From assembly GCF_048771995.1 (NCBI RefSeq), contig NC_133041.1:4663324-4727323 (forward strand): a DNA stretch of 64,000 nt. Direction: 5' to 3'. Source of the DNA: Taeniopygia guttata. Its lineage: Eukaryota. Position 1 is the first letter of the stretch, and each line of letters starts with the position of its first letter. The notes beneath the pieces were generated by a model. It saw nothing but the letters and a program-made list of their open reading frames with translations, made no database searches and was not told the origin of the DNA. Made by a program: the position numbers and the translations under genes. Positions 1,616 through 57,195 of this stretch are shown here, piece by piece.

Positions 1616-4600
1616 AATTGCCAAAAAAATTTCCAAAAAATGCTAAAAAAAATCCCCCAAAAATGCTAAAAAAAATCCCCCAAAATTGCCAAAAAAATCC
1701 CGCAAATTTTCCAAAAAAATTGCTAAAAAAAAACCCCAAAATTACTAAAAAAATCGCCCAAAATTGCCAAAAAAACGCCCCAAAATTGCTTAAAAAAATG
1801 CCCCAAAATTCCTAAAAAAATCACCCAAGTTTTCCACAAATCACCAAAAATTGCTAAAAAATCACCCAAAAGTTTCCAAAAATCACCCAAAATTTACAAA
1901 AAATCACCCAAAATTTACAAAAATCACCCACTTGTCTCATCTGAGACTCATCTGGGCATCCTCATTTTTTACCCTAAATCCCTCCAAAAATCCCCCTCAA
2001 AACCCCCTAAAATCACCCAAAAATCACTGAAAATTGCCAAAAATCCCCAAAATCCCCAAAACCCCCAAAATCTCCTTTTTTCCCGCAGATCCTGTACAAC
2101 CGCACCATGGTGCAGCTGGGCATCTGCGCCTTCCCTCACCTGTCCCACCTGTCCCAAGAAACCCCCTAAAACCCCCTAAAATCACCCAAAATTGCCAGAA
2201 AAGTCACCAAAAACCGCCTTAAATCACCCAAAATTGCTAAAAAATTCCCCAAAATTGCTAACAAATTTTTCCAAAATTTCTAAAAAAATCCCTCAAAAAT
2301 GCTAAAAATATTCCTAAATTTGCCCCAAAATTCCCCAAAATTGCCAAAAAAAATTCCAAAAATTGCTAAAAAAAACCACCCAGAATTTTCCAAAAATCAC
2401 CCTAAATTGCCAAAAAATCCCCCAAAATTGCCCAAAAAATCCCCCAAAATTTACAAAAAATCACCGAAAATTGTTAAAAAATCAACCAAAAATCACCAAA
2501 AAAATCCCCAAAATCCTCCCAAAATCACCAAAAATCCCCCTCAAAACCCCCAAAATCCCCCAAAAATCCCAAAAATTCCCAAAAACCCCCAAAAACCCCC
2601 CAAAAATCTCCTTTTTTTCCAGATCCTGTACAACCGCACGATGGTGCAGCTGGGCATCTGCGCCTTCCCTCACCTGTCCCACCTGTCCCAAGAAACCCCC
2701 TAAAATCACCCAAAATTGCCAGAAAAATCACCAAAAACCATCTAAAATCACCCAAAATGGCCAAAAAAATCACTAAAAACCACCTAAAATCACCCAAAAT
2801 TGCTAAAAAAATCACCCAAAATTTCAAAAAAAAAAATCCCAAAATTGCCCAAAAAATCCCCCAAAATTGCTAAAAAATCACTCAAAATTGCTAAAAAAAA
2901 ATCACACAAAATTTACAAAAAATCCCCCAAAATTGCTAAAAAATCCCCTAAAATTGCCCAAAAAATCACTCAAAATTGCTATAAAAAATCCCCCAAAATT
3001 GCCCAAAAAATCCCCCAAATTTGCTCAAAAAAATCCCCCAAAATTGCCAAAAAATCACTCAAAATTGCTAAAAAAATCACATAAAATTTACAAAAAATCT
3101 CCCAAAATTGCTAAAAAAATCCCCCCAAAGTGCCATAAAATCACCCAAAATTGCCAAAGAAATCCCTTAAAATAGCTAAAAAATCTCACAAAATTGCCAA
3201 AAAAATTCCCCAAATTTTCAAAAATAATCCCCCAAATTTTCCAAAAATCACCCAGAATCTCTAACAAAATTCCCCCAAAATGCTAAAAAATCCCCAAAAA
3301 TTGCTAAAATAAATCACCCCAAAATTTTTTTTTAAATCCCCCAAAATTGCTTAAAAATCCCAGAAAATTGCTAAAAAAATTCCCCAAAATTGCTAAAAAA
3401 ATTCCCCAAAATTGCTAAAAAAATTCCCCAAAATTGCTAAAAAAAATCACCCGAAATTGCAAAAAAAACCACCCAAAATTGTTTAAAAATCACCCAAAAA
3501 TCACCAAAAAAATCCCCAAAATCCTCCCAAAATCACCAAAAATCACCAAAAAAAACCCCAAAATTCCCAAAATCCCCAAAACTCCCCAAAACCCCAAAAA
3601 TCTCCTTTTTTTTCCCCAGATCCTGTACAACCGCACGATGGTGCAGCTGGGCATCTGCGCCTTCCCTCACCTGTCCCACCTGTCCCAAGAAACCCCCTAA
3701 AGTCACCCAAAATTGCCAAAAAAATCACCAAAAACCATCTAAAATCACCCAAAATGGCCAAAAAAATCACTAAAAACCACCTAAAATCACCCAAAATTGC
3801 TAAAAAAATCACCCAAAATTTAAAAAAAAAAATCCCAAAATTGCCCAAAAAATCCCCCAAAATTGCCAAAAAAATCACCCAAAATTGCTAAAAAAATCAC
3901 CCAAAAATGCTAAAAAATCTTCCCAAAATTGCTAAAAAGAAATCCCTTCAAAATAGCTGAAAAATCCCCTAAATTTGCCCCAAAAATCCCCCAAAATTGC
4001 CAAAAAAATCACCCAAAATTGCTAACAAAATTCCCCAAAATTGCTAAAAGAATTCCCCAAAATTGCTGAAAAATCACCCAAATTTGCTCAAAAAAATCCC
4101 CCAGAATTTTGCAAAAATCACCAAAATTGCCAATAAAATCACCCAAAATTGCCAAAAATCACCTACATTTTCCAAAAATCACCCACCTGTCCCACTTGGG
4201 ACTCACCTGGGCACCTCAAATCCTCATTTTTTACCCTAAATCCCCCTAAAAATCCATCAAAAATCTCCCTCAAAACCCTCTAAAATTCCCCCAAAGCCCC
4301 TTAAAATCACTGAAAATTGCCAAAAATCACCAAAAACCCCCAAAAATCTCCCTTTTATCCCCAGATCCTGTACAACCGCACGATGGTGCAGCTGGGCATC
4401 TGCGCCTTCCCTCACCTGTCCCAAGAAACCCCCTAAAACCCCCTAAAATCACCCAAAATTGCCAGAAAAATCACCCAAAATTGCTAATAAAATTCCCCAA
4501 AATTGCTAAAAAAATCACCCAAATTTGCCAAAAAAATTCTTCAAAAATGCAAAAAAAATTCCCAAAAAATGTTTAAAAAATTCCCCAAAATTGCTAAAAA

Positions 4601-6475
4601 AATCACCCAAGATGTACAAAAAATGACTCGAAATTGCCAAAAAATACCCCAAATATTGCCAAAAAAATTGCCCAAAAATTCCCCAAAATTGCTTAAAAAT
4701 CCCTCAAAATTGCGAAAATAAATCCCCCAAAAATGCTAAAAAACCCCCCCAAAATGCTAAAAAAATCCCCTAAAATTGCAAAAAAAATCACCCAAAATTG
4801 CCAAAAAAAGCACCCAAAATTACTAAAAAATTTCCCAAAAATGCTAAAAATTCCCTTTAATTTGCCCCAAAAATCAGCCAAAATTGCCAAAGAAGTCCCT
4901 CAAAAATGCTAAAAAAATCCCCCAAAATTGCCATAAAATCCCCCAAAATTTTCCAAAAATCCCCCAAAATTGCCAAAAAAATCCCCCAAAAATCCCCAAA
5001 AACCCCCCAAAATCCCCAAAAATCCCAAAAAATCTCCTTTTTCCCAGCTCCTGTACAACCGCACGATGGTGCAGCTGGGCATCTGCGCCTTCCCTCACCT
5101 GTCCCAAGAAACCCCCTAAAATCACCCAAAATTCCCAAAAAAATCCCCCAAAATTGCTAAAAAAATCCCCCAAAATTGCCATAAAATCTCCCAAAATTGC
5201 TAAAAAATCCCGCAAAGCTGCTAAAAAAATCACCCAAAATTACCCAAAATATCCCCCAAAATTTACAAAAAACTACCCAAAAATGCTGAAAAATCCCCCA
5301 AAATTGCTAAAAAGAAATCCTCTCAAAATAGCTGAAAAATCCCCTAAATTTGCCCCAAAAATCCCCCAAAATTGCTCAAAAAATCCCCCAAAATTTCTTT
5401 AAAAATCCCTCAAAAATGCTAAAAAATGACCCAAAAATCCCCCCTAATTTACAAAAAATCACCCAAAATTGCTATAAATATTCCCTAAAATTGCTAAAAA
5501 AATCACTCAAAAGTCCCATAAAATCACCCAAAATTGCCAAAAATCACCCACATTTTCCAAAAATCACCCAAAATTGCTAAAAAAATCCCCCAAAATTGCC
5601 AAAAAAATTCCCAAAAATGCTAAAAATATCCCCCAAAATTTACAAAAAATTCCCAAAAATTGCCAAAAAATTACCAAAAAAATTCCCAAAATTCCCCAAA
5701 ATCCCAAAAAAAACCCCCAAAATCTCCAAAACTTTTTTTTTTGCAGATCCTGTACAACCGCACGATGGTGCAGCTGGGCATCTGCGCCTTCCCTCACCTG
5801 TCCCAAGAAACCCCTGAAAACCCCCTAAAATCACCCAAAATTGCCAGAAAAGTCACCAAAAACCATCTAAAATCACCTAAAATTGCCAAAAAAATTACAA
5901 AAAACCGCCTTAAATCACCCAAAATTGCTAAAAAAATCACCCAAAATTTCAAAAAAAAAATCCCAAAATTGCCAAAAAAATCCCCCAAATTTGCCCCAAA
6001 AAATCCCCCAAAATGCTAAAAAATCTCACTAAATTGCCAAAAAACTTCCTAAAATTCCTAAAAAATCCCACAAAATTGCTAAAGAAATCCCCCAAAAATG
6101 ATAAAAAAGTCACCCAGAATTTTCCAAAAATCACCCAAAATTGCCAAAAAAATCCCCCAAAATTGCTAAAAGAATCACCCAGAATGTTCCAAAAATCACC
6201 CAAAATTGCCAAAAAAAATCCCAAAAAATGCTAAAAAATATTCGAAGTTGCTAAAAAAACATCAAAATTGCCATAAAATCACCCAAAATTGCCCAAAAAC
6301 TCACCCAAAATTGCCAAAAAAATTCAACTAAATTGCCAAAAAAATCCCCCAAAATTTACAAAAAATCCCCCAAAAATCACCCAAAATTGTTAAAAAATCA
6401 CCCAAAAATCACAAAAAAACACCCCAAAATTCCCAAAACCCCCAAAAAACCCAAAAACCCCTTTTTTCTCCCCAG
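1616..6475 (+). repeat. 4.8-kb A-rich microsatellite-like array (ccaaaattgccaaaaaaatcacc variants) organised as ~0.7-kb higher-order units, each carrying a copy of the first ~50 nt of the next EIF3C exon with its acceptor (cag|ATCCTGTACAACCGCACGATGGTGCAGCTGGGCATCTGCGCCTTCC)
   Basis: Pseudo-exon copies lie at about 2089, 2623, 3619, 4364, 5048 (an atc-to-ctc variant) and 5747. The real exon starts at 6476. After gccttcc, every copy diverges to ctcacctgtccc. Confidence 0.9.
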
Positions 6476-16413: not shown

Positions 16414-16576
16414 GCCTCGCTGGACCAGCCCACGGCCACGGTGATGATGCACCGGACGGAGCCGACGGCCACGCAGAACCTGGCGCTGCAGCTGGCCGAG
16501 AAGTTGGGCAACCTGGTGGAGAACAACGAGCGGGTGCTGGACCAGCGGCAGGGCGCCTACGGGGGGTACTTCAGAG
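16414..16576 (+). CDS. EIF3C: EIF3C exon, translating [54 protein letters not shown](D)
   Basis: Matches human [55 protein letters not shown]. The acceptor is cacctgcag|gcc and the donor ttcagag|gtgagc. Confidence 0.88.
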
Positions 16577-16744
16577 GTGAGCACACCTGGGCACACCTGG
16601 GCACACCTGGGGGCACCTGGGAGGGAGAGAACAAAAAAAACCCGGTGGAAATGGGGTGAAAAATGGGGATTTTGGGGGGTTTTTGGGTTACCTGGGCACA
16701 CCTGAGCCCTGCCCCGTTCTCACCTGTCCCATCTTGTCCTGCAG

Positions 16745-16824
16745 ACCAGAAAGATGGCGGATACCGCAAAGGTGACGGGTACCTGCGGCGGGGCGGCTTC
16801 CGGCAGGAGCGCGGCAACTACTGA
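16745..16824 (+). CDS. EIF3C: EIF3C terminal coding exon, translating (D)QKDGYRKGDGYLRRGGFRQERGNY followed by a stop
   Basis: Matches the human eIF3c C-terminus [26 protein letters not shown]. The acceptor is tcctgcag|ac and the stop codon TGA is at 16822-16824. Confidence 0.85.
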
Positions 16825-16838
16825 CCCACACCTGCCCC

Positions 16839-17335
16839 ATGGATCCTTACCTGCCCCATAGATCCCTTACCTGCCCCATGGATCCTCACCTGTTCTACAA
16901 ATTCACTCACCTGGGCAAAAAGTCATCACCTGCCCCATGGACCCCTCACCTGCCCCATGGACCCCTCACCTGCCCCATAGATCCCTTACCTGCCCCATGG
17001 ATCCTCACCTGCCCCATAGATTCCTCACCTGCCCTATGGATTCCTCACCTGCCCCATAGATCCCTCACCTGCCCCATGGATCCCTTACCTGCCCCATAGA
17101 TCCCTCACCTGCCCCATAGATCCCTTACCTGCCCCATAGATCCCTTACCTGCCCCATAGATCCTCACCTGTTCTACAAATTCACTCACCTGGGCAAAAAG
17201 TCATCACCTGCCCCACGGACCCCTCACCTGCCCCATAGATCCCTTACCTGCCCCATAGATCCTTCACCTGCCCCATGGATTCCCTCACCTGCCCCATAGA
17301 TCCCTCACATGCCCCATAGATCCTCACCTGTTCCA
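16839..17335 (+). repeat. Minisatellite of ~21 bp (cacctgccccatagatccctt) in the EIF3C 3' flank or UTR
   Basis: It starts 15 bp after the EIF3C stop. ORF 16839-17099 there is repeat-encoded. Confidence 0.85.
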
Positions 17336-17359
17336 TCAAGGGTCCCACAGCTGGAAATG

Positions 17360-17365
17360 AATAAA
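17360..17365 (+). terminator. EIF3C: AATAAA polyadenylation signal, candidate EIF3C 3' end about 540 bp after the stop
   Basis: A canonical AATAAA sits in a short AT-rich unique segment (17340-17420) immediately after the 3'-UTR minisatellite. Assigning it to EIF3C is an inference. Confidence 0.4.
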
Positions 17366-17449
17366 TTAATTATTAAAGAGCATGGTAATGAGGAGTTAAT
17401 TAATTCATTAGGCAGGGGCTGCCCCATAGATCCTGGCCCTGCCCCATAA

Positions 17450-18690
17450 GTGGCCCCAAAGTTTCTCCCCTCACGTTTTCCCGCCTTTTTTCCTCACATT
17501 TTCCCGCCTTTTTTCCTCACGTTTTCCCGCCTTTTTTCCTCCCCTCACGTTTTCCCGCCTTTTTTCCTCACATTTTCCCGCCTTTTTTCCCCCCTCACGT
17601 TTTCCCGCCTTTTTTCCTCCCTCACATTTTCCCGCCTTTTTCCTTCCCTCACGTTTTCCCACCATTTTTTTTCCCCTCACGTTTTCCCGCCTTTTTTCTC
17701 CCCTCACGTTTTCCCTCCATTTTTCCTCCCCTCACATTTTCCCTCCTTTTTTCCCCCCTCACATTTTCCCGCCTTTTTCCCTTCCCTCACATTTTCCCGC
17801 CTTTTTTCCCCCCTCACATTTTCCCGCCATTTTTGTTCCCCTCACGTTTTCCCGCCTTTTTCCTCTGTCACATTTTCCCGCCTTTTTCCTCCCCTCACAT
17901 TTTCCCGCCTTTTTCCCTCCCTCACATTTTCCCGCCTTTTTCCTCTGTCACATTTTCCCGCCTTTTTCCTCCCCTCACATTTTCCCGCCTTTTTCCCTCC
18001 CTCACATTTTCCCGCCTTTTTCCCTCCCTCACATTTTCCCGCCTTTTTTCCCCCCTCACATTTTCCCGCCTTTTTTCCCCCCTCACATTTTCCCGCCTTT
18101 TTTCCCCCCTCACATTTTCCCGCCTTTTTTCCTCCCTCACATTTTCCCGCCTTTTTTCCCCCCTCACATTTCCCGCCTTTTTTGTTCCACTCACATTTTC
18201 CCGCCATTTTCTTCCCTCACATTTTCCCGCCATTTTCCCCCCTCACATTTTCCCGCCTTTTTCCCCCCTCACATTTTCCCGCCATTTTTCCCCCTCACGT
18301 TTTCCCGCCTTTTTTCCCCCCTCACATTTTCCCGCCTTTTTTCCCCCTCACATTTTCCCGCCTTTCCCCCCCCCTTACATTTTCCCGCCTTTTTTCATCC
18401 CCTCACATTTTCCCGCCTTTTTTCCCCCTCACATTTTCCCTCCTTTTTCCCCCTCACATTTTCCCGCCTTTTTCCTCCCCTCACATTTTCCCTCCTTTTT
18501 CCCCCTCACATTTTCCCGCCTTTTTCCTCCCCTCACATTTTCCCTCCTTTTTTCCCCTCACGTTTTCCCGCCTTTTTCCCCCTCACATTTTCCTGCCTTT
18601 TTTCTCCCCTCACGTTTTCCCGCCTTTTTTTTCACATTTTCCCGCCTTTTTTCCCCCTCACGTTTTCCCGCCATTTTGTTTGATCCACAA
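17450..18690 (+). repeat. Minisatellite of 25 bp (cctcacattttcccgccttttttcc), about 50 copies
   Basis: Seen directly. The 427-aa ORF at 17450-18733 is repeat-encoded. Confidence 0.9.
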
Positions 18691-18989
18691 ATTCCACTCC
18701 CATAACTCAATTTTAATAAAACAACAATTTTAAAACCCTTAATTAATTATCCCTCATTAATTAACAGCGCCCCCTGCGATGTGACTTTCCCCGTCCATTC
18801 CGCCCCATTGCTCCCACCCATTTTAATAAAATTAATTCATTGATTAATACAAATATGAATTAATTAAACGATTACTTATTAATTAGCGATTTATTAACGA
18901 GCAGCAAACCCCTGCCCCATAATCAACTCCCCATTTCCATAAAATTAATTAAGTGAAAGATGAAAAACACGCATCAATTACCTTAAATT

Positions 18990-19229
18990 ATTAATTAATT
19001 AATCAATCAGCCCTGGTTAATGAGCGACGAGGGGCTGCGCCCTGCCCCCAAAAACCTTCGGCCATTAATTACTCATTAAAAACCCTCGTTAATGAGTGAC
19101 CGGGGGGGGGAGGGGCGGCTGTGCCCCTCATTAATCCCTCACTAATTAACCGCGTTAATGAGTGACTCGGGGGGGGGTGGGGGATAAAATTCCCTCCCCC
19201 ACCTCCCTCAGGGCCTTCCCGGCGCCGCC
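18990..19229 (+). promoter_or_regulatory. PRODH2: Candidate PRODH2 promoter with three spaced copies of an HNF1-like half-site GTTAATGAG(T/C)GAC and attaat motifs; it ends in a perfect Kozak context gccgccATGG at 19221-19233
   Basis: The motif occurs at about 19016, 19088 and 19152 (ggttaatgagcgac, cgttaatgagtgacc, cgttaatgagtgactc), each followed by a G-run. The HNF1 consensus is GTTAATNATTAAC, and PRODH2 is liver/kidney-specific in mammals. The assignment is an inference. Confidence 0.4.
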
Positions 19230-20420
19230 ATGGGGCAGGGGGGGTCCCTGCTGAGATCTGTGGGGCAGGGGAGATCTGTGGGGCAATCTATGGGGGGATT
19301 TATGGGGGGATCTATGGGGGGATCTATGGGGCAGGGGAGGTCCTTGGGGGGATCTATGGGGCGATCTATGGGGGGATTTATGGGGGGATCTATGGGGCAG
19401 GGCAGATCTATGGGGCAGGGGAGGTCCTTGGGATTTATGGGGGGATCTATGGGGGGATTTATGGGGGGATCTATGGGGCAGGGGAGGTCCTTGGGGGGAT
19501 TTATGGGGGGGTCCCTGTGGAGATCTGTGGGGCAGGGCAGACCTATGGGGGGATTTATGGGGCAGGGGAGGTCCTTGGGATTTATAGGGAGATCTGTGGG
19601 GGGATTTATGGGGGGATCTATGGGGCAGGGGAGGTCCTTGGAGGGATTTATGGGGGGATTTATGGGGGGATCTATGGGGCAGGGCAGATCTATGGGGCAG
19701 GGGAGGTCCTTGGGATTTATGGGGGGATCTATGGGGGGATTTATGGGGAGATCTATGGGGCAGGGGAGATCTATGGGGCAGGGCAGATCTATGGGGCAGG
19801 GGAGATCTATCGGGGGATTTATGGGGGGATCTATGGGGCAGGAGAGATCTATGGGGGGATTTATGGGGGGATCTATGGGGCAGGGAGCATCCCTGAGGGG
19901 ATTTATGGGGAGATCTGTGGGGGGATTTATGGGGGGATCTATGGGGCAGAAACCATCCTTGGGGGGATCTATGGGGCAGAGGAGATCTATGGGGGGATCT
20001 ATGGGACAGGGAGGGGTTAAGGGTGGATCTATGGGTCAGGGAAGCTCTATGCCGAGATCTATGGGGCAGGGAGGCTCTATGGGCGGATCTATGGGTCAGG
20101 AGGGTTCTATGGGGGGATCTGTGGGTCAGGAGGGATCAGTGGGTCAGGAGGGCTCCATGGGGCGGCGTGTGGGGCAGGAGGGATCTATGCCGGGATCTAT
20201 GGGTCAGGAGGGATCAGTGGGTCAGGAGGGCTCCATGGGGCGGCGTGTGGGTCAGGAGGGCTCCATGGGGCAATCAGTGGGTCAGGAGGGCTCCATGGGG
20301 GAATCTGTGGGTCAGGAGGGATCAGTGGGTCAGGAGGGCTCCATGGGGCGGCGTATGGGGCAGGAGGGATCTATGGGCGGATCTGTGGGTCAGGAGGGAT
20401 CTGTGGGTCAGGAGGGCTCT
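19230..20420 (+). repeat. Array of gggggatctatggggcagggg(aggtccttg) units and related variants, reading in frame from the Kozak ATG at 19230 into the PRODH2 exon
   Basis: The 454-aa ORF at 19230-20594 is Gly/Met/Ser/Gln-rich and periodic. Confidence 0.85.
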
Positions 20421-20561
20421 ATGGGGCGGCGTGTGGGGCAGGTGCAGGCGCAGCTGGGGCAGGGCCGGGCGCTGGCGGTGCTGACTTGGGGGGAGCTGCT
20501 CCGGGCCCTGCTGGTGCTCGGCCTGTGCGCCCACCCCCGGCTGCAGCGCGACCCCCAGGCG
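20421..20561 (+). CDS. PRODH2: PRODH2 (hydroxyproline dehydrogenase) first recognisable coding exon, translating MGRRVGQVQAQLGQGRALAVLTWGELLRALLVLGLCAHPRLQRDPQA; the true start is uncertain (see the finding on the in-frame ATG at 19230)
   Basis: GELLRALLVLGLCAHP aligns to human PRODH2 GELTRALLVLRLCAWP. The N-terminus is Arg-rich and looks like a mitochondrial targeting sequence. The donor is caggcg|gtgaga at 20561/20562. Confidence 0.6.
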
Positions 20562-20569
20562 GTGAGACC

Positions 20570-22380
20570 CACAAGTGGGGGGCGGGACCCATAGAGACAG
20601 CCCTGACCCATAGACAGACCCATAGACAGACCCACAAGTGGGGGGCAGGACCCATAGAGACAGCCCTGCCCCATAGAGAGCCCTGCCCCATAGACAGAGC
20701 CCTGACCCATAGATGGAGCCTGACCCATAGACAGACCCATAGACAGACCCACAAGTGGGGGGCGGGCCCCATAGAGAGCCTGACCCATAGACAGACCCAT
20801 AGAGAGAGCTGTGACCCATAGACAGACCCAGAGACAGACCCATAGATGGAGCCCTGACCCATAGACAGACCCATAGATGGAGCCCTGCCCAATAGACAGA
20901 GCCCTGCCCCAGAGACAGACCCAGAGACAGACCCACAAGTGGGGGGCAGCACCCCATAGACAGAGCCCTGACCCATAGAGAAACTCCATTTCCCCCCATT
21001 TCCCCCAATTTCTCCCCATTTTATTCCCCCCATTTCCCCCAAAATTTCTCCCCATTTCCCCCATTTTTTTTACGTTTTCCCCAATTTTTTCCCAAATTTT
21101 CCCCAATTTTTCCCTATTTCCTCCCCTTTTTTTTCAAATTTCCCCCAATTTTCCCCATTTTCCCCCATTTTCCCCCATTTCCCCCCCATTTCCCACCCAT
21201 TTTCCCCCATTTTTTTTACTTTTTTCCCAATTTTTCCCCATTTCCCCCAATTCTTTTCAATTTTTTCCCAATTTTTCCCAATTTTACCCAATTTTCCCCA
21301 TTTTCCCCCATTCCCCCCATTTTCCTGCCCATTCCCCCCCATTTTCCCCCCATTTCCCCCCATTTTATCCCCATTTTCCCCCCTTTTTTTTCAATTTTTC
21401 CCAATATTTTCCCAATTTCCCCCCATTTCTCCCCATTTCCCCCCATTTTCTCCTTTTCCCCCCATTTCTCCCCATTTCTCCCCATTTTACTCAATTTTTT
21501 CTCATTTTTCCCCATTTTTCCCCATTTTCCCCATTTTTCCCCATTTTTCCCCATTTTTCCCCCATTCCCCCAATTTCCCCCCATTTCCCCCCATTTTTTC
21601 CTATTTTTTCCCAATTTTTCCCCCATTTCCCCCAATTTCCCCCCATTTCCCCCCATTTTCTCCCCAATTTCCCCCCATTTCCCCCAACTTTATCCCCATT
21701 TTTCCACATTTTCCCCCATTTTCTCCATTTTTCCCCCTTTTTTTTTCCATTTTTCCCTATTTTCCCCCATTTCCCCCCATTTTTCCCCATATCTTCCCAT
21801 TTTATCCCAATTTTGCCCCATTTTTTCCCAATTTTCCCCCATTTCCCCTATTTTTTTTCTATTTTTTTTCAATTTTTTTTCAATTTTTTCCCAATTATCC
21901 CCAATTTTTTCCCATTTCCCCCATTTTTTCCCCATTTTTCCCTATTTCCCCCCTTTTTTTTCAATTTTTCCCAATATTTTCCCAATTTCCCCCCATTCCC
22001 CCCATTTTTTTCCCAATTCCCCCCATTTTCTCCCCATTTCCCCCCATTTTCCCCTTTTTATCTCCATTTTCCCCCATTTCCCCCATTTTCCTCCATTTTT
22101 TCCTAATTTTTTCCCAATTTCCCCCCAATTTTCACCATTTCCCCCCATTTTATCCCCATTCTTCCTCATTTTTTCCCCATTTCCCCCATTTTTCCCAATT
22201 TTCCCCCTTTTTCCCCCATTTCCCCCCATTTCTCCCCATTTTCTCCCCAATTTCCCCCAATTTTTTTCGTTTTTTTTTCCCGATTTTCCCGATTTTCCCC
22301 CATTTTATCCCCATTTTACCCATTTTCCCCATTTTTTTTCAATTTTTTCTCATTTTTCCCCATTTCCCCCAATTTCCCCC
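20570..22380 (+). repeat. Two adjoining intronic arrays: gacccatagacagacc units (20570-20990), then ccccatttcccccaatttt units (20990-22380)
   Basis: Seen directly. Confidence 0.85.
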
Positions 22381-22589: not shown

Positions 22590-23740
22590 ACTTGGGGGGC
22601 ACTTGGGGGGCGGCTGTGGGGTGGTTGTGGGGGTTTGGGGTCACTGATGGAGCAGTTGTGGGGCAGTTATGGGGTCACTTATGGGGCAGTTATGGGGTTT
22701 GGGGTCACTTATGGGGCACTTATGGGGCAGTTATGGGGTTTGGGGTCACTTATGGGGCACTTATGGGGCAGTTATGGGGCAATTATGGGGTTTTGGGGTC
22801 AATTGTGGGGCGGTTATGGGGTCAATTATGGGGCAGTTATGGGGGCACTTGGGGGGTGCAGGGGGCACTGGGGGAGTGTGGGGGGCACTAATGGGGCAGT
22901 TATGGGGCAGTTATGGGTCACTAATGGGGTGTGGGGGTCACTTATGGGGCAGTTATGGGGTTTTGGGGTCACTTATAGGTCACTAATGGGGCAGTTATGG
23001 GGCAGTTATGGGGGTTTGGGGTCACTTATGGGGCAGTTATGGGGTTTTGGGGGCACTTGTGGGGCAGTTTCGGGGTCACTAATGGGGTTTTGGGGTCACT
23101 AATGGGTCACTTGTGGGTCATTTGTGGGTCACTGATGGGGTTTGGGGTCACTTATGGGTCACTGATGGAGTTTGGGATCACTTGTGGGGCAGTTTCGGGG
23201 TCCCTTATGGTGCTCGGGGGTCACTTGTGGGGCAGGGAGGAGTTTGGGGTCACTTATGGGTCACTCGTGGGTCACTGATGGGGTTTTGGGGTCACTTATG
23301 GGTCACTTACAGGTCACTCATGGGGTGTAGGGGTCACTTGTGGGTCACTAATGGGGTTTTGGGGTCACTTATGGGGTGTAGGAGTCACTGATGGGGCAGT
23401 TATGGGGTCACTTGTGGGTCGTTTTAGGGTCACTTGTGGGGCAATTATGGGTCACTGATGGGGTTTTAGGGTCACTTGTGGGTCATTGATGGGGTTTTGG
23501 GGTCACTTACGGGGCAGTTCTGGGGTCACTTGTGGGGCAGTTCTGGGGTCACTTGTGGGGTTTGGGGTCACTTGTGGGGCAGGGAGGCGCAGCTGCAGCA
23601 GAACTGTGGGGCAGCGCTCCGATGTGTGGGGCAGTTCTGGGTCACTTGTGGGGCAGGGAGGCTCTCAGTGTCACTTGTGGGGCAGTTATGGGGCAGTTCT
23701 GGGTCACTTGTGGGGCAGTTATGGGTCACTTGTGGGGCAG
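22590..23740 (+). repeat. Array of ggggtcacttatggggcagttatgg units; its last units (about 23575-23640) carry a copy of the 5' half of the PRODH2 exon at 23741
   Basis: gcagggaggcgcagctgcagcagaactgtggggcagcgctccgatgtgtggggcag at 23577-23632 copies 23738-23793. Confidence 0.85.
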
Positions 23741-23869: not shown

Positions 23870-24900
23870 GGCGGGTGTGGGGCAGAGGGGATCTGTGGGG
23901 CAGGGATCTGTGGGGCAGGGGGATCTATGGGGTGGGATCTGTGGGGCAGGGTGTGGGGCAGGGGTATGGGGTCTATGGGGCTGAAGCTGACGGCGCTGCT
24001 GGACCCACGGCTCTGCGTGAGTGGGGCGGGGGGATCTGTGGGGCGGGATGTGGGGCAGGGTGTGGGGTCTATGGGGTGGGGATCTGTGGGGCGGGATCTA
24101 TGGGGCAGGGTGTGGGGCAGGGATGTGGGGCAGGGTGTGGGGTCCATGGGGCAGGGGGATGTGTGGGGCAGGGGGATCTGTGGGGTGGGATCTGTGGGGC
24201 AGGGTGTGGGGTGGGGATGTGGGGTCTATGGGGTCTATGGGGCAGGGGATGTGTGGGGAAGGCAGATGTGGGGTGGGATCTGTGCGGTGGGATCTGTGGG
24301 GCAGGGGTATGTGTGGGGCAGGGGGATCTATGGGGCAGGGACCTATGGGGCAGGGGTGTGGTGGGATCTGTGGGGCAGGAGATCTGTGGGGCAGATTTGG
24401 GATCTATGGGGCAGATTTGGGATCTATGGGGCAGGGCTGTGATCTATGGGGCAGATTTAGGATCTATGGGGCAGGATTGGAATCTATGGGGCAGATTTGG
24501 ATCTATGGGGCAGATTTGGGATCTATGGGGCAGATTTGGGATCTATGGGGCAGATTCGGGATCTATGGGGCAGATTTGGGATCTATGGGGCAGGATTGGG
24601 ATCTATGGGGCAGATTTGGGATCTATGGGGCAGATCAATGGGGCAGGATCGGGATCTATGGGGCAGGATTAAATCTATGGGTCAGGATTAAATCTCTGGG
24701 GCACATTCGGATCTATGGGGCAGATTTGGATCTATGGGGCAGGATTGGGATCTATCGGGCAGGATTGGGATCTATGGGGCAGATTTGGATCTATGGGGCA
24801 GATTTGGGATATATGGGGCAGATTTGGATCTATGGGGCAGATCTATGGGGCAGGATCGGGATCTATGGGGCAGGATTAAATCTATGGGGCAGGATTAAAT
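23870..24900 (+). repeat. Array of gggatctatggggcag(atttgg) units, with a second copy of the 3' half of the PRODH2 exon at 23741-23861 embedded at 23975-24022 (ggctgaagctgacggcgctgctggacccacggctctgc|gtgagtgggg)
   Basis: Seen directly. Confidence 0.85.
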
Positions 24901-26129: not shown

Positions 26130-27117
26130 GTGAGCGCACCTGGGCACCTGGGGGCACCTGGGCGCACCTGGGGGCACCTGGGGGCACCTGGGAGGGGCGG
26201 GGCAAAAAAAACCCGGTGGAAATGGGGTGGAAAATGGGGATTTTGGGGGGTTTTGGGGGTACCTGGGAACACCTGGGGGGGTAAAAACACACCTGGGCAC
26301 AGCTGGGCACAGCTGGGGCACATTTTGGGGTACTTGGAGCACACCTGGGCACATTTTGGGCACATTTTGGGCACACTTTGGGCACACCTGGGCACACCTG
26401 GGGTATATTTTGGGCACATTTTGGGCACATTTTGGGCACACCTGTCCCCCCCAGGACACCAAGGCCCGGCTTGGGGCACACCTGGGCACACCTGGGGCAC
26501 ATTTTGGGGTACCTTGGGCAAACCGGGGGCACACCTGGGTACACCTGGGGCACATTTTGCGGTACCTGGGGCACACCTGGGCCCACTTAAATACACCTGG
26601 GCACACCTGGGCACACCTGGGGCACATTTTGGGTATATTTTGGGCACACCTGTCCCCCCAAGACACGGAGTCCCGGCTCGGGGCTCACCTGGGCACACCT
26701 GGGGGGTACCTGTGACACACCTGGGCACACCTGGGGGATATTTTGGGCACATTTTGGGCACATTTTGGGCACACCTGGGGGTACCTGTGTCACACCTGTC
26801 CCCCCAGGACACGGAGTCGCGGCTCGGGGCTCACCTGGCGCAGGTGGGGCACACCTGGGGGATATTTTGGGTATATTTTGGGTATATTTTGGGTATATTT
26901 TGGGCACACCTGTCCCCCCAGGACACGGAGTCCCTCCTCGGGGCTCACCTGGGCACACCTGGGTGATATTTTGGGCACATTTTGGGTATATTTTGGGCAC
27001 ACCTGTCCCCCCAGGACACCAAGTCCCGGCTCGGGGCTCACCTGGCGCAGGTGGGGCACACCTGGATGATATTTTGGGTATATTTTGGGTATATTTTGGG
27101 CACACCTGTCCCCCCAG
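26130..27117 (+). repeat. CACCTGGGCACA / cattttgggcacattttggg array carrying five copies of the acceptor and first ~40 nt of the PRODH2 exon at 27118 (cccccag|GACAC[CG][AG]AG[GT]CCCGGCT[CT]GGGGC.CACCTGG)
   Basis: Copies lie at about 26445, 26652 (caag, acceptor lost), 26800, 26908 and 27008. Several extend to tcacctggcgcaggtg before diverging. Confidence 0.88.
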
Positions 27118-27284
27118 GACACGGAGTCCCTGCTCGGGGCTCACCTGGCGCAGGTGCGGGGGGCGGGGCTGCGCTGTGGGGTGAAGTTGGTGCGCGGGGC
27201 TTACCTGGCCCAGGAGCAGGGGCGGGCCCGGGAGCGCGGCCGCCCCGCCCCCACCTGGGACACACCTGAGCAGACCTCGGCCAG
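27118..27284 (+). CDS. PRODH2: PRODH2 exon, translating DTESLLGAHLAQVRGAGLRCGVKLVRGAYLAQEQGRARERGRPAPTWDTPEQTSA(S)
   Basis: Matches human DTFERLGRDAEAAHRAGLAFGVKLVRGAYLDKERAVAQLHGMEDPTQPDYEATSQS, including the conserved GVKLVRGAYL motif. The acceptor is cccccag|gac and the donor ggccag|gtacgg. Confidence 0.85.
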
Positions 27285-31132: not shown

Positions 31133-32430
31133 GTGAGTGACCCTGAGTGACCCCTGTGACCCCTGAGTGACCCCTGTGTGACCCTGAGTGACCCCTGTGA
31201 CCCCTGTGACCCTGAGTGACCCTGAGTGACCCTGAGTGACCCTGAGTGACCAATGAGTGACCCTGAGTGACCCTGAGTGACCCTGAGTGACCCTGAGTGA
31301 CCCTGAGTGACCCCGAGTGACCCCAATCTGACCCCTGAGTGACCCCTGAATGACCCCTGAGTGACCCCTGAGTGACCCCTGTGACCCCTGAGTGACCCTG
31401 AGTGACCCCTGAGTGACCCTGTGACCCCTGAATGACCCCTGAGTGACCCTGAGTGACCCTGAGTGACCCTGAGTGACCCCTGAGTGACCCCTGTGACCCT
31501 GAGTGACCCCTGAGTGACCCCTGTGACCCCTGAGTGACCCCTGTGACCCTGAGTGACCAATGAGTGACCCTGAGTGACCCTGAGTGACCCTGAGTGACCC
31601 CTGAGTGACCCCTGAGTGACCCCTGAGTGACCAGTGACCAATGAGTGACCCCTGAGTGACCCTGAGTGACCCCTGAGTGACCCTGAGTGACCCCTGTGAC
31701 CCCTGAGTGACCCCTGAGTGACCCCTGAGTGACCCTGAGTGACCCTGAGTGACCCTGAGTGACCAATGAGTGACCCCTGAGTGACCCCTGTGACCCCTGA
31801 GTGACCCCTGAATGACCCAGAGTGACCCTGAGTGATCCCAAATCCCCCAAATCCCCCAAAATCCCCCCAAAATCCCCCCAAAAATCCCCAAAAATCCCCT
31901 TAAATGACTCCAAACTGACCCCAAGTGACCGAGTGACCCTGAGTGACCCTGAGTGACCCCAAATCCCCCAAAATGCCTCAAAAATCCCTAAAAAAAACCC
32001 TAAAATTACCCCAAACTGACCCTGAGTGACCCCAAATGACCCCGAATGACCCTGAGTGACCCCTGAGTGACCCCTGAGTGACCAATGAGTGACCAATGAG
32101 TGACCCCTGAGTGACCCAAAATCCCCCAAAAGGCCTCAAAAATCCCCCAAAAAACCCCTAAAATTACCCCAAACTGACCCCAAATGACCCCAAATGACCC
32201 TGAGTGACCCCTAAGTGACCCCTGAGTAAGCCCTGAGTGACCACTGACCACTGAGTGACCCCTGAGTGACCCCAAATCCCCCAAAATCCCCCAAAAATCC
32301 CCCAAAAATCCCTAAAAAATCCCCCAAAATCCCCTTAAACGACCCCAAATGACCCCAAATGACCCCGAGTGACCCCCGAGTGACCCCCGAGTGACCCCCG
32401 AGTGACCCCGAGTGACCCCGAGTGACCCCC
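31133..32430 (+). repeat. GTGACCC(C)TGAGTGACC minisatellite beginning exactly at the PRODH2 donor gtgagtgacc
   Basis: The repeat unit reproduces the splice-donor consensus GTGAGT about 75 times. Confidence 0.9.
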
Positions 32431-33110: not shown

Positions 33111-34559
33111 AAAAATTCAAAAATATCCCCCCAAAATCCTGGATTTTTAGGCCAAAATTTACAAAATTCCCATTTAAAAAGCTCAAAATTGGGCTGAGGA
33201 CCCAAAACTTTCAGAAATCCCCAAAATTCTCCCAAATTTTCCACCCAAGTTGGAATTTTTGGGGAAAAATGCGGAAAAAAGACGGATTTGGGGTAAAAAC
33301 AAAAACTAAAAGTGAATTTTTTTGTTATATTGGGAAAAAGAAAATTTTTTGGGGAAAATGGGGATTTTGGGGGGAAAAAGTAAAATTTTGGGGACAAAAT
33401 GCAGAAGTTTTGGGGGGAGAAAAAGGCGGATTTTTGGGGGAAAAAAGTGGATTTTTTCTGGAAAAATGTGGATTTTAAAAGGATTTTTTATTTTTTAACG
33501 GAAAAGGGGACATTTTGGGAGAAAAATAAAATTTTTTAGATAATTCAAAGCGGGGAAAACGTGGATTTATGGGAGTAAAAAGGTGAATTTTTGGGTGAAA
33601 AATGTGAATTTTGGGGAATGAAATGCAGATTTTGGGCAAAAAAAGGTGAATTTTTGGGGAGGGAAGGGGGATTTGAGGGGAAAAAATGACAATTTGGGCG
33701 CAAAAATAAAGATTTTGGGGGAAGAAAATCAGATTTCGAGGGGTAAAAGTAGAATTTGGGTCAAAAAAAAGTGGATTTTGGGATTAAAATTGTGGATTTT
33801 GAGGTAAAAATGTGGATTTTGGGGTGAAAAATGTGGATTTTGTGGTTAAAAAAAAGCGATTTTGGTGGGAAAAAGCCGATTTTTCCCTCACGAAAGTGGA
33901 ATTTTTGGGATCAAAACCCTTTTTGGGGGATCCCGTTGGGATTTGTGGGATTTGGGTGAATTTTCGGGGAATTTTGGGTGAATTTTGGCCAATTTTGAGG
34001 TGATTTTTGGGTGAATTTACACCGATTTTTGGGGTGATTTTGGAGTGATTTTGGGGTGATTTTTGGGTGATTTTTGAGCCGATTTTGGGTGATTGTTGGG
34101 TGATTTTGGGGTGAATTTTGGCCGGTTTTGGGGTGATTTTTGGGGCGATTTTGGGATGACTTTTGGGTGAATTTTGGACGATTCTTGGGGTGATTTTGGG
34201 GTGATTTTTGGGTGATTTCTGATCCGATTTTTGGGTGATTTTTGGGTGATTTTTTTTGTGATTTCTGGGTGAATTTGGGGTGAATTTGGGCCGATTTCGG
34301 GTGAATTTGGGCCGATTTTGGGGTGATTTTTTGGTGAATTTTGGGTGATTTTTTGATGAATTTTGGGTGAATTTTGGCCGATTTTTGGGTGATTTTTGGG
34401 TGAATTCGCACCGATTTTTGGGTGATTTCTGAGAGGATTTTTGGGGTGATTTTTGGCTGAATTTGGGCCTATTTGGGGGTGATTTTGGGGTGATTTCTGA
34501 TCCGATTTTTGGGTGATTTTGGGGTGAATTTTGGGTGAATTTTGGGCGATTTTGGCGCC

Positions 34560-35281
34560 TTTAGGGAGGGGCTTGGGGGGGGGCTCAAAATGGCGGCGGC
34601 TCCTGAGGGGCGCGAAAATGGCGGGAAAACGGCGGGGTGGGTGTGGCTTATCGCGCGCGGGGGGGGCGGAGTCACCGGCAGGGCGTGGCCGCAATTAATA
34701 ATTATTAATTAACAACCAATTAATCGATCAGGGCGTGGCTTTATCGATTAGCGGGGGCGCGGCTTTCGCGCTGCGCGGCCAATCAGCGCCGCGCCCGCGC
34801 GGTTGCCATGACAACGCTCTGCCATCATGGCGCCGCGGCCGCGCCGGCTGCTGATTGGTTCTCCCTCCTCTTGGCGGGCGTGTCCCGACCAATCAGCGCT
34901 CCGCTTTTCCGTGAGGGGGATCCGCGCCATTTTGCGGCAGGGCGGGAAAACCGCGGTGGGCGTGGCTTCGCTTAGAAAAAAAAGGAGAAAGGGGCGTGGC
35001 TTTTGCTGCGCCCAATCAGCGCCCACCGCGGGCGCGCCGCGCCCAATCAGCGCCCGCCTTTTGGCCACGCCTACCTATATTGAAGCCACGCCCACCTCCC
35101 CCCTCACTCCGCGCCCCCCTTTCCCCTCAGCGCCCCCCGCCCCTCCCCCACCGCAGCCCCCTCCCCTCCCCCACCCCTCCCCCACCCCTCCCCCACCCCT
35201 CCCCCACCCCTCCCCCACCCCTCCTCCTCCTCCTCCTCCCGGCCGCGGCTCCGGTCGCGATTCTGTCGCGACAGTGGCGAG
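34560..35281 (+). promoter_or_regulatory. MAZ: MAZ CpG-island promoter with at least four CCAAT boxes (ccaatcag/ctgattgg at about 34790, 34851, 34881 and 35012-35045), a TATA-like tatattgaag at about 35080, and tandem CCCCTCCCCCA (G3AG3 complement, an ME1a1/MAZ-type motif) repeats at 35100-35250
   Basis: CpG density is high and ccaatcagcg is repeated. The C-rich array lies immediately 5' of the putative MAZ ATG at 35282. Confidence 0.6.
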
Positions 35282-43299: not shown

Positions 43300-44400
43300 A
43301 GCCGGGGGTCACGCGGGGGTCAGCCGGGGGTCACGCAGGGGTCACTCATTGGTCACTCATTGGTCACTCAGGGGTCACTCACGGGTGGAAATGGGGAAGG
43401 GTTGGGGGTCAGGAGGGAGCAGAGGGGGCGTGGCCTTTGGGAATGGGGGCGTGGCCTAAGTGGGTGTGGTCAGTGGTCACTCATTGGTCACTCAGGGGTC
43501 ACTCAGGGGCGGAATTGGGGAAGGGTTTGAGGTCAAAAGGGAACAGGAGAGGGCGGAGGGGGCGTGGCCAAAGTGGGTGTGGTCAGTGGGCGTGGTCAAG
43601 GGTCAGTGGTCACTCATTGGTCACTCATTGTTCACTCATTGTTCACTCAGTGGTCACTCATGGGTCACTCATTGGTCACTCATTGGTCACTCAGGGGTCA
43701 CTCAGGGGTGGAAATGGGGAAGGGTTTGAGGTCAAAAGGGGAGGAGGGGGCGTGGCCTTTGGGGATGGGGGCGTGGCTAAAGTGGGCGTGGTCAGTGGTC
43801 ACTCATTGGTCACTCAGTGGTCACTCATTGGTCACTCAGGGGTCACTCAGGGGTCACTCAGGGTCACTCAGGGGTCACTCATTGGTCACTCAGGGGTCAC
43901 TCATTGGTCACTCAGGGTCACTCAGGGGTCACTCATTGGTCACTCAGGGGTCACTCATTGGTCACTCAGGGGTCACTCTGGGTCACTCAGTGGTCACTCG
44001 GGGTCACTCAGAGGTCACTCAGGGGTCACTCATTGGTCACTCAGGGTCACTCATTGGTCACTCATTGGTCACTCAGGGTCACTCATTGGTCACTCAGGGT
44101 CACTCATTGGTCACTCTGGGTCACTCAGGGTCACTCATTGGTCACTCAGGGTCACTCATTGGTCACTCAGGGTCACTCAGGGTCACTCAGGGTCACTCAG
44201 GGGTCACTCAGGGGTCACTCAGTGGTCACTCATTGGTCACTCATTGGTCACTCAGGGGTCACTCATTGGTCACTCAGGGGTCACTCATTGGTCACTCATT
44301 GGTCACTCAGGGTCACTCAGGGTCACTCATTGGTCACTCAGGGGTCACTCAGGGTCACTCAGGGTCACTCAGGGTCACTCAGGGTCACTCATTGGTCATT
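43300..44400 (+). repeat. ggtcactcattggtcactcagg minisatellite (MAZ last intron); the related family gtcactcagtggtcactcca is at 46580-47980 and gggtcactcggggtcactca at 48110-48700
   Basis: Seen directly. Confidence 0.88.
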
Positions 44401-56266: not shown

Positions 56267-56339
56267 CTGGGGTAGGAGGAGGCCAAGGTCAAGAAGGTCA
56301 CCTCGCCAAGCCCCGCCCCCGCACTGCCCAGCGCCACAC
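56267..56339 (-). CDS. CLN3: CLN3 exon, translating (G)[23 protein letters not shown](S/R)
   Basis: Aligns to human [25 protein letters not shown]. The acceptor is cactcag|gt and the donor ccccag|gtaagg. Confidence 0.85.
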
Positions 56340-57195
56340 CTGAGTGACCAATGGGGGAGCGTGAGTGACCGGTGAGTGACCTCTGACCCCGAGTGACACT
56401 GAGTGACCCATGAGTGACCCCAGAGTGACCCCTGAGTGACCAATGAGTGACCAGTGAGTGACCCCGAGTGACCCTGAGTGACCCTGAGTGACCACTGAGT
56501 GACCCCTGAGTGACCAATGAGTGACCCTGAGTGACCCCTGAGTGACCAATGAGTGACCAATGAGTGACCAATGAGTGACCAATGAGTGACCACTGAGTGA
56601 CCCCTGAGTGACCCCGAGTGACCCCTGAGTGACCAATGAGTGACCCCGAGTGACCAATGAGTGACCAATGAGTGACCAATGAGTGACCCCGAGTGACCAA
56701 TGAGTGACCAATGAGTGACCCCTGAGTGACCCCTGAGTGACCCCTGAGTGACCCTGAGTGACCAATGAGTGACCAATGAGTGACCCTGAGTGACCCTGAG
56801 TGACCAATGAGTGACCAATGAGTGACCCTGAGTGACCAATGAGTGACCAATGAGTGACCAATGAGTGACCCTGAGTGACCCTGAGTGACCAATGAGTGAC
56901 CCTGAGTGACCCCTGAGTGACCACTGAGTGACCCCTGAGTGACCCCGAGTGACCCTGAGTGACCCTGAGTGACCCTGAGTGACCACTGAGTGACCCCTGA
57001 GTGACCCCGAGTGACCCTGAGTGACCCTGAGTGACCCTGAGTGACCCTGAGTGACCACTGAGTGACCCTGAGTGACCAATGAGTGACCCCGAATGACCCC
57101 TGAGTGACCCCTGAGTGACCCTGAGTGACCCCTGAGTGACCCTGAGTGACCCCGAGTGACCCCTGAGTGACCCCGAGTGACCCCGAGTGACCGCT
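56340..57195 (+). repeat. gtgaccaatgagtgaccc / gtgaccctgagtgaccc array between two CLN3 exons, the reverse complement of the GTGAGTCAC-type donor satellite
   Basis: On the minus strand it reads ggtcactcagg units. It abuts the acceptor of exon 56267-56339 and the donor of exon 57199-57284. Confidence 0.88.

Follow-up and report, generated by a model that had tools for sequence, protein, structure and literature searches.

The 64-kb window (i.e., the whole stretch of zebra finch DNA that was analysed) consists of tandem repeat over 82% of its length (TRF). Genes of the + strand lie on both sides of the region studied: the 3' end of EIF3C upstream and PRODH2/HYPDH (hydroxyproline dehydrogenase) downstream. 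The last exon of EIF3C has its TGA at 16820-16822 and an AATAAA at 17360. Beyond this poly(A) signal, the order is: (i) a 27-bp satellite of 1.2 kb (17462-18677); (ii) an island (18678-19252); (iii) again tandem repeat (19253-20442). From 16.8 to 34.5 kb, the island (575 bp) is the sole stretch free of repeats that exceeds about 215 bp, and no other unique DNA separates the EIF3C poly(A) signal from HYPDH exon 1. Its 3' half is occupied by three copies of a module that resembles the binding site of HNF1. The features are listed below, distances to the ATG being counted from 19230.

17360..17412, + strand: EIF3C poly(A) signal AATAAA (17360-17365), then a decayed TAATGAG/TTAATTAAT remnant
18678..18989, unstranded: AT-rich (33% GC), TAAT-dense, passerine-specific upstream island
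19016..19028, + strand: module 1 (distal), HNF1-like 13-mer GTTAATGAGCGAC, 9/12 to the consensus GTTAATNATTAAC, then GGGG only
19063..19080, - strand: inverted TAATGAG-type copy, minus strand TTTAATGAGTAATTAATG, just upstream of module 2
19088..19100, + strand: module 2, HNF1-like 13-mer GTTAATGAGTGAC, 10/12 to the consensus, -142 from the ATG
19101..19119, + strand: G9 run and GC box after module 2, candidate Sp1/KLF site
19125..19151, - strand: two inverted copies, minus strand GTTAATTAGTGAGGGATTAATGAGG, just upstream of module 3
19154..19166, + strand: module 3 (proximal), HNF1-like 13-mer GTTAATGAGTGAC, 10/12 to the consensus, -76 from the ATG
19167..19182, + strand: G-rich tract TCGGGGGGGGGTGGGG after module 3
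19183..19189, + strand: TATA-like GATAAAA, 47 bp 5' of the ATG
19230..19232, + strand: ancestral HYPDH start codon in GCCGCCATGG context; the same ATG context lies 3' of the modules in all passerines
19253..20442, + strand: 1.19-kb tandem repeat of GGGGATCTATGGGGCAGG type, between the ancestral ATG and conserved exon 1
20442..20561, + strand: conserved coding part of HYPDH exon 1 (..GELLRALLVLGLCAHPRLQRDPQA)

The ten coding exons of HYPDH were pieced together from short unique gaps between satellite arrays. The assembled protein has 100% identity, over the shared exons, to the NCBI models of Taeniopygia guttata hydroxyproline dehydrogenase, among which several exon-skipping or frame-shifted isoforms are found. 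The length of the gene is about 13 kb in zebra finch versus about 2.1-3.5 kb in seriema, crane and alligator. The HYPDH protein is fast-evolving among passerines: zebra finch has 72-79% amino acid identity to most of the oscines compared, and 68% to Catharus. The EIF3C exons nearby have 93-99% nucleotide identity.

The zebra finch record that carries HYPDH is 5.74 Mb in length, within the size range reported for dot chromosomes (5.99 +/- 1.57 Mb). About 51% of the euchromatin of zebra finch dot chromosomes is minisatellite (PMC12954441; zebra finch T2T genome, bioRxiv 10.1101/2025.10.14.682431). The same sources describe on avian dot chromosomes a «sequence stuttering», i.e., a local and imperfect tandem expansion of unique intron or exon sequence. 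Partial exon copies are present inside intronic arrays of the window, at 2011-6400, 23580-23624, 23964-24016 and 26680-27156. An EIF3C exon piece of 15 residues is repeated about six times within the window, HYPDH exon 3 has fragments on both sides of the real exon, and the 5' end of HYPDH exon 7 forms, with its splice acceptor, the unit of a 103-bp array. These partial copies of EIF3C and HYPDH exons thus behave as in the published «exon stuttering».

Downstream of HYPDH, another unique island (34540-35140) is CpG-rich and promoter-like, with repeated CCAATCAGCGC (CCAAT-box-like) and AAAATGGCGG motifs. It includes a small TAAT-rich patch (34696-34730) where ATTATTAATTAAC has 2 mismatches to the HNF1 consensus. 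No structured RNA was detected by Rfam in 16500-21000 (E <= 0.1).

A search of the whole window with the pattern GTTAATGAGYGAC gives three matches, all on the + strand, at 19016, 19088 and 19154. The count of GTTAATGAG[C/T]GAC is 3, versus a mean of 0.03 in dinucleotide shuffles, and none of 100 shuffles reaches 3. A fourth copy of the full module pattern, even with one mismatch, was not found elsewhere in the 64 kb. The start-to-start spacing of the modules is 72 and 66 bp, and module 1 is at -214 from the ancestral ATG. The repeat search returns (i) a 24-nt family whose three copies are spaced by 72 and 66, and (ii) a 53-nt unit with spacing 66, of which the two copies (19063-19115 and 19129-19181) have 79% identity. 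G9 runs directly follow modules 2 and 3, and module 1 is followed by GGGG only. The GGGGCGG core at 19112-19118, near the putative promoter, is a consensus match to the Sp1/KLF GC box and is considered as a candidate site.

The preliminary description of this DNA had claimed a triplicated module, in agreement with the three matches found against 0.03 by shuffling. Its positions 19016 and 19088 are exact and its third one (19152) is 2 bases off. It had also paired GTTAAT with a G-run in each copy, which holds for modules 2 and 3 but not for module 1. The AT-rich, non-satellite segment that it had placed upstream does exist (18678-18989, 33% GC, repeat-free). This segment contains 26 TAAT/ATTA cores and, at about 18890-18918, a decayed module copy TTATTAACGAGCAGCAAACCCCTGCCCC. 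It is missing from seriema, crane and alligator.

The HNF1 dimer has as consensus a 13-bp palindrome, GTTAATNATTAAC. The match to HNF1 was scored as the number of mismatches over the 12 specified positions of this consensus. Modules 2 and 3 reach 10/12, and module 1 reaches 9/12. In modules 2 and 3 the left half is perfect (GTTAAT), and the right half is AGTGAC versus ATTAAC, i.e., two core mismatches, with the outer AC kept. Matches to the consensus with at most 2 mismatches are present in the 250-bp upstream regions, while shuffles give 0.00-0.02. The standard EMSA probe for HNF1A is that of rat albumin (TGTGGTTAATGATCTACAGTTA). Its core, GTTAATGATCTAC, scores 10/12 as well, and GTTAATGA---AC is common to the albumin probe and the bird motif. 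As far as sequence can tell, modules 2 and 3 match the HNF1 consensus at the level of a validated natural site.

The resemblance to known HNF1A/HNF1B promoters concerns three aspects: (i) the site itself is, as in rat albumin, a 13-bp pseudo-palindrome whose first half is a perfect GTTAAT and whose second half is degenerate (10/12); (ii) as in liver and kidney promoters driven by HNF1A/HNF1B, the candidate sites lie within about 100-150 bp of what would be the start codon (the ancestral ATG), with GC-rich elements adjacent; (iii) PRODH2 is, like HNF1-dependent genes, liver- and kidney-tubule-specific in mammals. There are also differences. The right half AGTGAC of the finch is not found among the HNF1 sites verified in this analysis and, unlike known HNF1 promoters, passerines have three tandem copies plus inverted partial copies, located between minisatellite arrays.

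Independent literature links HNF1 to Prodh2 in mouse and Xenopus. Mouse Prodh2 has predicted HNF1A/B sites in the core and in the evolutionarily conserved promoter sets, and is an anchor gene of the early proximal tubule (PMC3046260). Xenopus prodh2 is listed with a 95.9-fold increase when HNF1B has been overexpressed for 7 h in animal caps, a value not flagged as significant in the table (PMC3042965). Human PRODH2 is among liver-specific genes (PMC11602805). The mouse and Xenopus studies (PMC3046260, PMC3042965) thus deal with the same gene and the same proposed regulator. They contain motif enrichment and expression data, without site sequence, birds, amniote-wide conservation at -80 or amplification.

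Orthologous loci were taken as the DNA around HYPDH proteins in ten other species. The oscines compared with zebra finch are Lonchura, Anomalospiza, Passer, Molothrus and Catharus, and the suboscine is Myiozetetes. The non-passerine loci are those of seriema (Cariama), crane, alligator and bat (Desmodus). EIF3C is directly upstream of HYPDH in every sauropsid locus examined. The distance from the EIF3C stop to the HYPDH ATG is 188 bp in seriema and 348 bp in alligator, and the annotated gap is about 210 bp in crane. For bat PRODH2, no EIF3C gene is called in the 6 kb examined upstream.

The gap between EIF3C and HYPDH contains one GTTAATGAGT(G/A)AC in seriema and one in alligator. The motif is GTTAATGAGTGAC at -89 from the HYPDH ATG in seriema, GTTAATGAGTAAC at -84 in alligator, GTTAACGAGCGAC at -107 in crane and GTTAATCAGTCAC at -80 in bat, where GTTAATCGTTAAC is found in addition at -148. 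The position in these outgroups, the second bat site apart, thus ranges from -80 to -107. Module 3 is the positional orthologue of the single copy of non-passerines, alligator and bat. A G-rich tract is also present 3' of the motif in seriema, crane and alligator. Scores to the HNF1 consensus are 11/12 for the alligator site, and 10/12 and 11/12 for the bat sites (the latter for the distal one). The crane motif has 4 mismatches, which means that not every bird has a strong match to HNF1.

An alignment of seven amniotes over the 110-140 bp located 5' of the ATG has a mean column identity of 48%, and its invariant columns cluster in the 13-mer (GTTAA-nAG-nA). In the stretch compared, no other block is invariant across bat, alligator, crane, seriema and passerines. 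The 13-mer is thus a textbook phylogenetic footprint, i.e., the site is conserved and its flanks have diverged. Both outer ends of the 13-mer and its fixed spacing are kept from bat to birds, and a dimeric HNF1 therefore fits better than a monomeric TAAT factor. The preliminary description had spoken of HNF1-like half-sites; the match is better than that, since it extends over the full dimer consensus (10/12, and 11/12 in alligator). Conservation in related species, which it had proposed as a check, is observed as well, with invariant columns concentrated in the 13-mer from bat to passerines. Motif quality and conservation both support its interpretation.

At the scale of songbirds, identity among oscines is 87-92% for the module core (19063-19181), 68-77% for the AT-rich island and 74-95% for HYPDH coding exons. 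Over the six oscines, the number of invariant columns is 9/13 for module 1, 12/13 for module 2 and 11/13 for module 3. The inverted copies have 17/18 (19063-19080) and 23/27 (19125-19151) invariant columns, and the GGGGGAGGGGCGGC box (19104-19119) has 15/16. Altogether, 86% of motif columns are invariant in the six oscines versus 60% of the other columns of 18990-19229 (Fisher p = 3.5e-5, to be read as indicative only since the inverted-copy and GC-box classes were set after viewing the sequence). The divergence of oscines is modest, and part of the songbird conservation could come from shared ancestry.

The same three modules are found in the same order in all five other oscines, and are then followed by the same GCCGCCATGGGGC start context. 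In the suboscine Myiozetetes, modules 2 and 3 are ATTAATGATTGAC and GTTAATGAGTGAC, and module 1 is decayed. With three modules in oscines, two plus a decayed one in the suboscine and one in seriema, the amplification is placed before the oscine-suboscine split and after the split from seriema. Orthologous modules have 87-92% identity between species (19063-19181), versus 79% for modules 2 and 3 within zebra finch. Orthologous copies are thus more alike than paralogous ones, which indicates that the duplication is old and that the copies have not been homogenised.

Further copies exist upstream. Intact GTTAATGAG copies are located directly after the EIF3C poly(A) signal in Passer (two), Lonchura and Molothrus, and the zebra finch copy (17383-17412) is decayed. 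In the orthologous loci, these post-EIF3C copies are at L002 7230-7270, L001 4933 and L003 7367. Between them and the main cluster stands the 27-bp satellite 17462-18677 (CCCCTCACATTTTCCCGCC, reminiscent of CCCCTCATTAAT), which may have arisen within the module array. In Lonchura, the AT-rich part (L001 7458-8082, corresponding to about 18820-18950 of the window) has been multiplied in tandem, about 5 times, with a period of 126/246 bp. The 246-bp units have 96% identity and the zebra finch counterpart is single-copy; duplication is thus recent and ongoing beside the conserved modules.

The modules are imperfect head-to-tail copies of locally derived unique sequence, which is the definition of stuttering. 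As in stuttering, the duplication is lineage-specific and the outgroups are single-copy. It differs from the published cases in two ways: (i) these concern introns and exons (a search of PMC12954441 did not find the word «promoter»), whereas the unit is here a candidate cis-regulatory module; (ii) the copies are few (three plus relics), old and individually conserved, whereas the published copies are fast-evolving. The locus is also comparable to homotypic clusters, with several sites of the same type, in either orientation, over about 150 bp close to a putative promoter. Unlike the usual clusters, its origin from a single ancestral site by tandem duplication is directly traceable; cooperativity between the sites is hypothetical.

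The place of the modules relative to the start of HYPDH deserves attention. The ATG at 19230 occupies the same place as the start codon in seriema, crane, alligator and bat, and in Catharus the annotated CDS begins at the corresponding ATG (L005:10001). The ELxRALLVL anchor comes 102-114 nt after this ATG in the four outgroups, but 497-1748 nt after it in the seven passerines, because a tandem repeat has expanded inside the ancestral exon 1. In four of these passerines (zebra finch, Passer, Molothrus and Catharus) the exon-1 repeat has no stop codon and preserves the reading frame. In the other three (Lonchura, Anomalospiza and Myiozetetes) the ATG beside the modules and exon 1 are in different frames. 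HYPDH is a mitochondrial enzyme, and the region that normally encodes its N-terminus is thus disrupted or extended in passerines. An open reading frame runs from 19230 into exon 1, but it was not taken as evidence that the repeat is translated, since the repeat unit is stop-free in all forward frames and only 4/7 passerines are in frame.

The NCBI protein models of zebra finch HYPDH have their first codon within the repeat, at an ATG about 1 kb 3' of the modules. Together with the three out-of-frame ATGs, these models suggest that the modules may be an upstream enhancer and not the core promoter. The TATA-like element is conserved as GGGGATAAA(A/T) in all oscines (7/11 columns invariant), but the suboscine and the non-passerines do not have it in this form. 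Depending on where transcription starts, the modules would act as the core promoter or from about 1.1 kb 5' of the present start site, and both fit an HNF1-driven regulation.

Taken together, the three modules are probably songbird tandem copies of an ancestral proximal promoter element of PRODH2/HYPDH, made of an HNF1-type site and a GC box, as judged from the DNA of the loci compared. This element would combine a pseudo-palindromic HNF1-type site of 13 bp, GTTAATnAGTnAC, with a G-rich/GC-box tract on its 3' side. The amniote ancestor would have had one such element, about 80-90 bp 5' of the HYPDH start codon. We infer that an HNF1A/HNF1B dimer binds the 13-mer and confers promoter activity. 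With Sp/KLF-type factors on the adjacent GC box, it would drive transcription in liver and kidney tubule. In the passerine lineage, a unit of about 66-72 bp would then have been duplicated head-to-tail before the oscine-suboscine split. The likely process is «sequence stuttering», the same as the one that would have made 82% of the window minisatellite. Since then modules 2 and 3 would have stayed nearly unchanged, giving a homotypic cluster, and module 1 and the further upstream copies would be decaying.

The duplication may however be without consequence, one copy (probably the proximal one) being at work and the others being neutral by-products that look conserved through the kinship of songbirds. 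Such an outcome is unlikely, though it would suit a locus where duplication is indiscriminate (82% tandem repeat, partial exon copies in the flanking arrays), where Lonchura has re-amplified upstream copies that are otherwise degenerate, and where module 1 is decaying (9/12 to the consensus, 9/13 columns invariant, lost in the suboscine). It is less easily reconciled with module 2, which has the best-conserved 13-mer in oscines (12/13) and its own GC box (15/16 invariant), with the retention of both modules 2 and 3 in the suboscine, and with the neighbouring AT-rich island, which has drifted to 68-77% over the same time. Neutral copying thus fits module 1 well and module 2 poorly.

It is less probable still that the likeness to HNF1 is incidental and that another factor is recognised, i.e., that TAATGAG serves another TAAT-recognising homeodomain/POU factor, or TGAGTGAC a bZIP-type factor. 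In favour of this, the right half of the site is degenerate, crane matches HNF1 poorly, the island has dozens of TAAT cores, and TAATGAG occurs in both orientations, including in copies without the full 13-mer. Nevertheless, the full 13 bp are conserved from bat to birds with the outer G1 and A12/C13 and a fixed spacing, which fits a dimeric HNF1. The alligator copy and the second bat site match the HNF1 palindrome at 11/12, bat and alligator have TCAGTCA and TGAGTAA in place of TGAGTGA, and the link between HNF1 and Prodh2 comes from an independent literature.

An absence of any function, the motif being a relic of the local 11-bp GAGTGAC satellites or an element of EIF3C 3'-end formation or termination, is hardly credible: GAGTGAC is indeed the core of the arrays 31134-32334, 43470-44398 and 56339-57192 and the sauropsid motif lies just about 60 bp 3' of the EIF3C poly(A) signal, but the window has no further match to the full pattern, even with one mismatch, and seriema and alligator have just one 13-mer, in a compact intergenic region without satellites. 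A descent from the TGAGTGACCCC and GGTCACTCATG 11-bp satellites is effectively ruled out by this single-copy 13-mer and by its presence in bat, and an EIF3C 3'-end element is effectively ruled out by the bat site, which is upstream of PRODH2 with no EIF3C called in the 6 kb upstream.

Under the preferred reading, i.e., copies of an ancestral HNF1-type promoter element, the feature is otherwise a fairly ordinary tissue-specific promoter element, and the HNF1-Prodh2 link had already been predicted in mouse. PRODH2/HYPDH has drawn interest as an enzyme to target in primary hyperoxaluria. If confirmed, the site would provide a precise, amniote-wide candidate cis-element for this gene, and the HNF1-PRODH2 link of mouse and Xenopus would rest on one identifiable site about 80 bp 5' of the ATG.

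A stronger proposal is that stuttering has turned one functional HNF1 site into a homotypic cluster that was selected and kept for tens of millions of years. It is put forward only tentatively and is rather doubtful at present, a functional gain from the extra copies being presumed. If the cluster is selected, a possible benefit would be the expression of HYPDH despite kilobases of satellite and a repeat of 0.5-1.7 kb before the coding exon. For bird genomics, the locus would be a small example of a dot-chromosome gene that keeps its regulatory DNA, the module being a constrained island amid fast-evolving satellites. It suggests that local duplication can copy regulatory elements too, besides introns and exons. 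In the case of a selected cluster, it would be a traceable case where the instability of tandem repeats builds regulatory architecture, beyond the bloating of introns.
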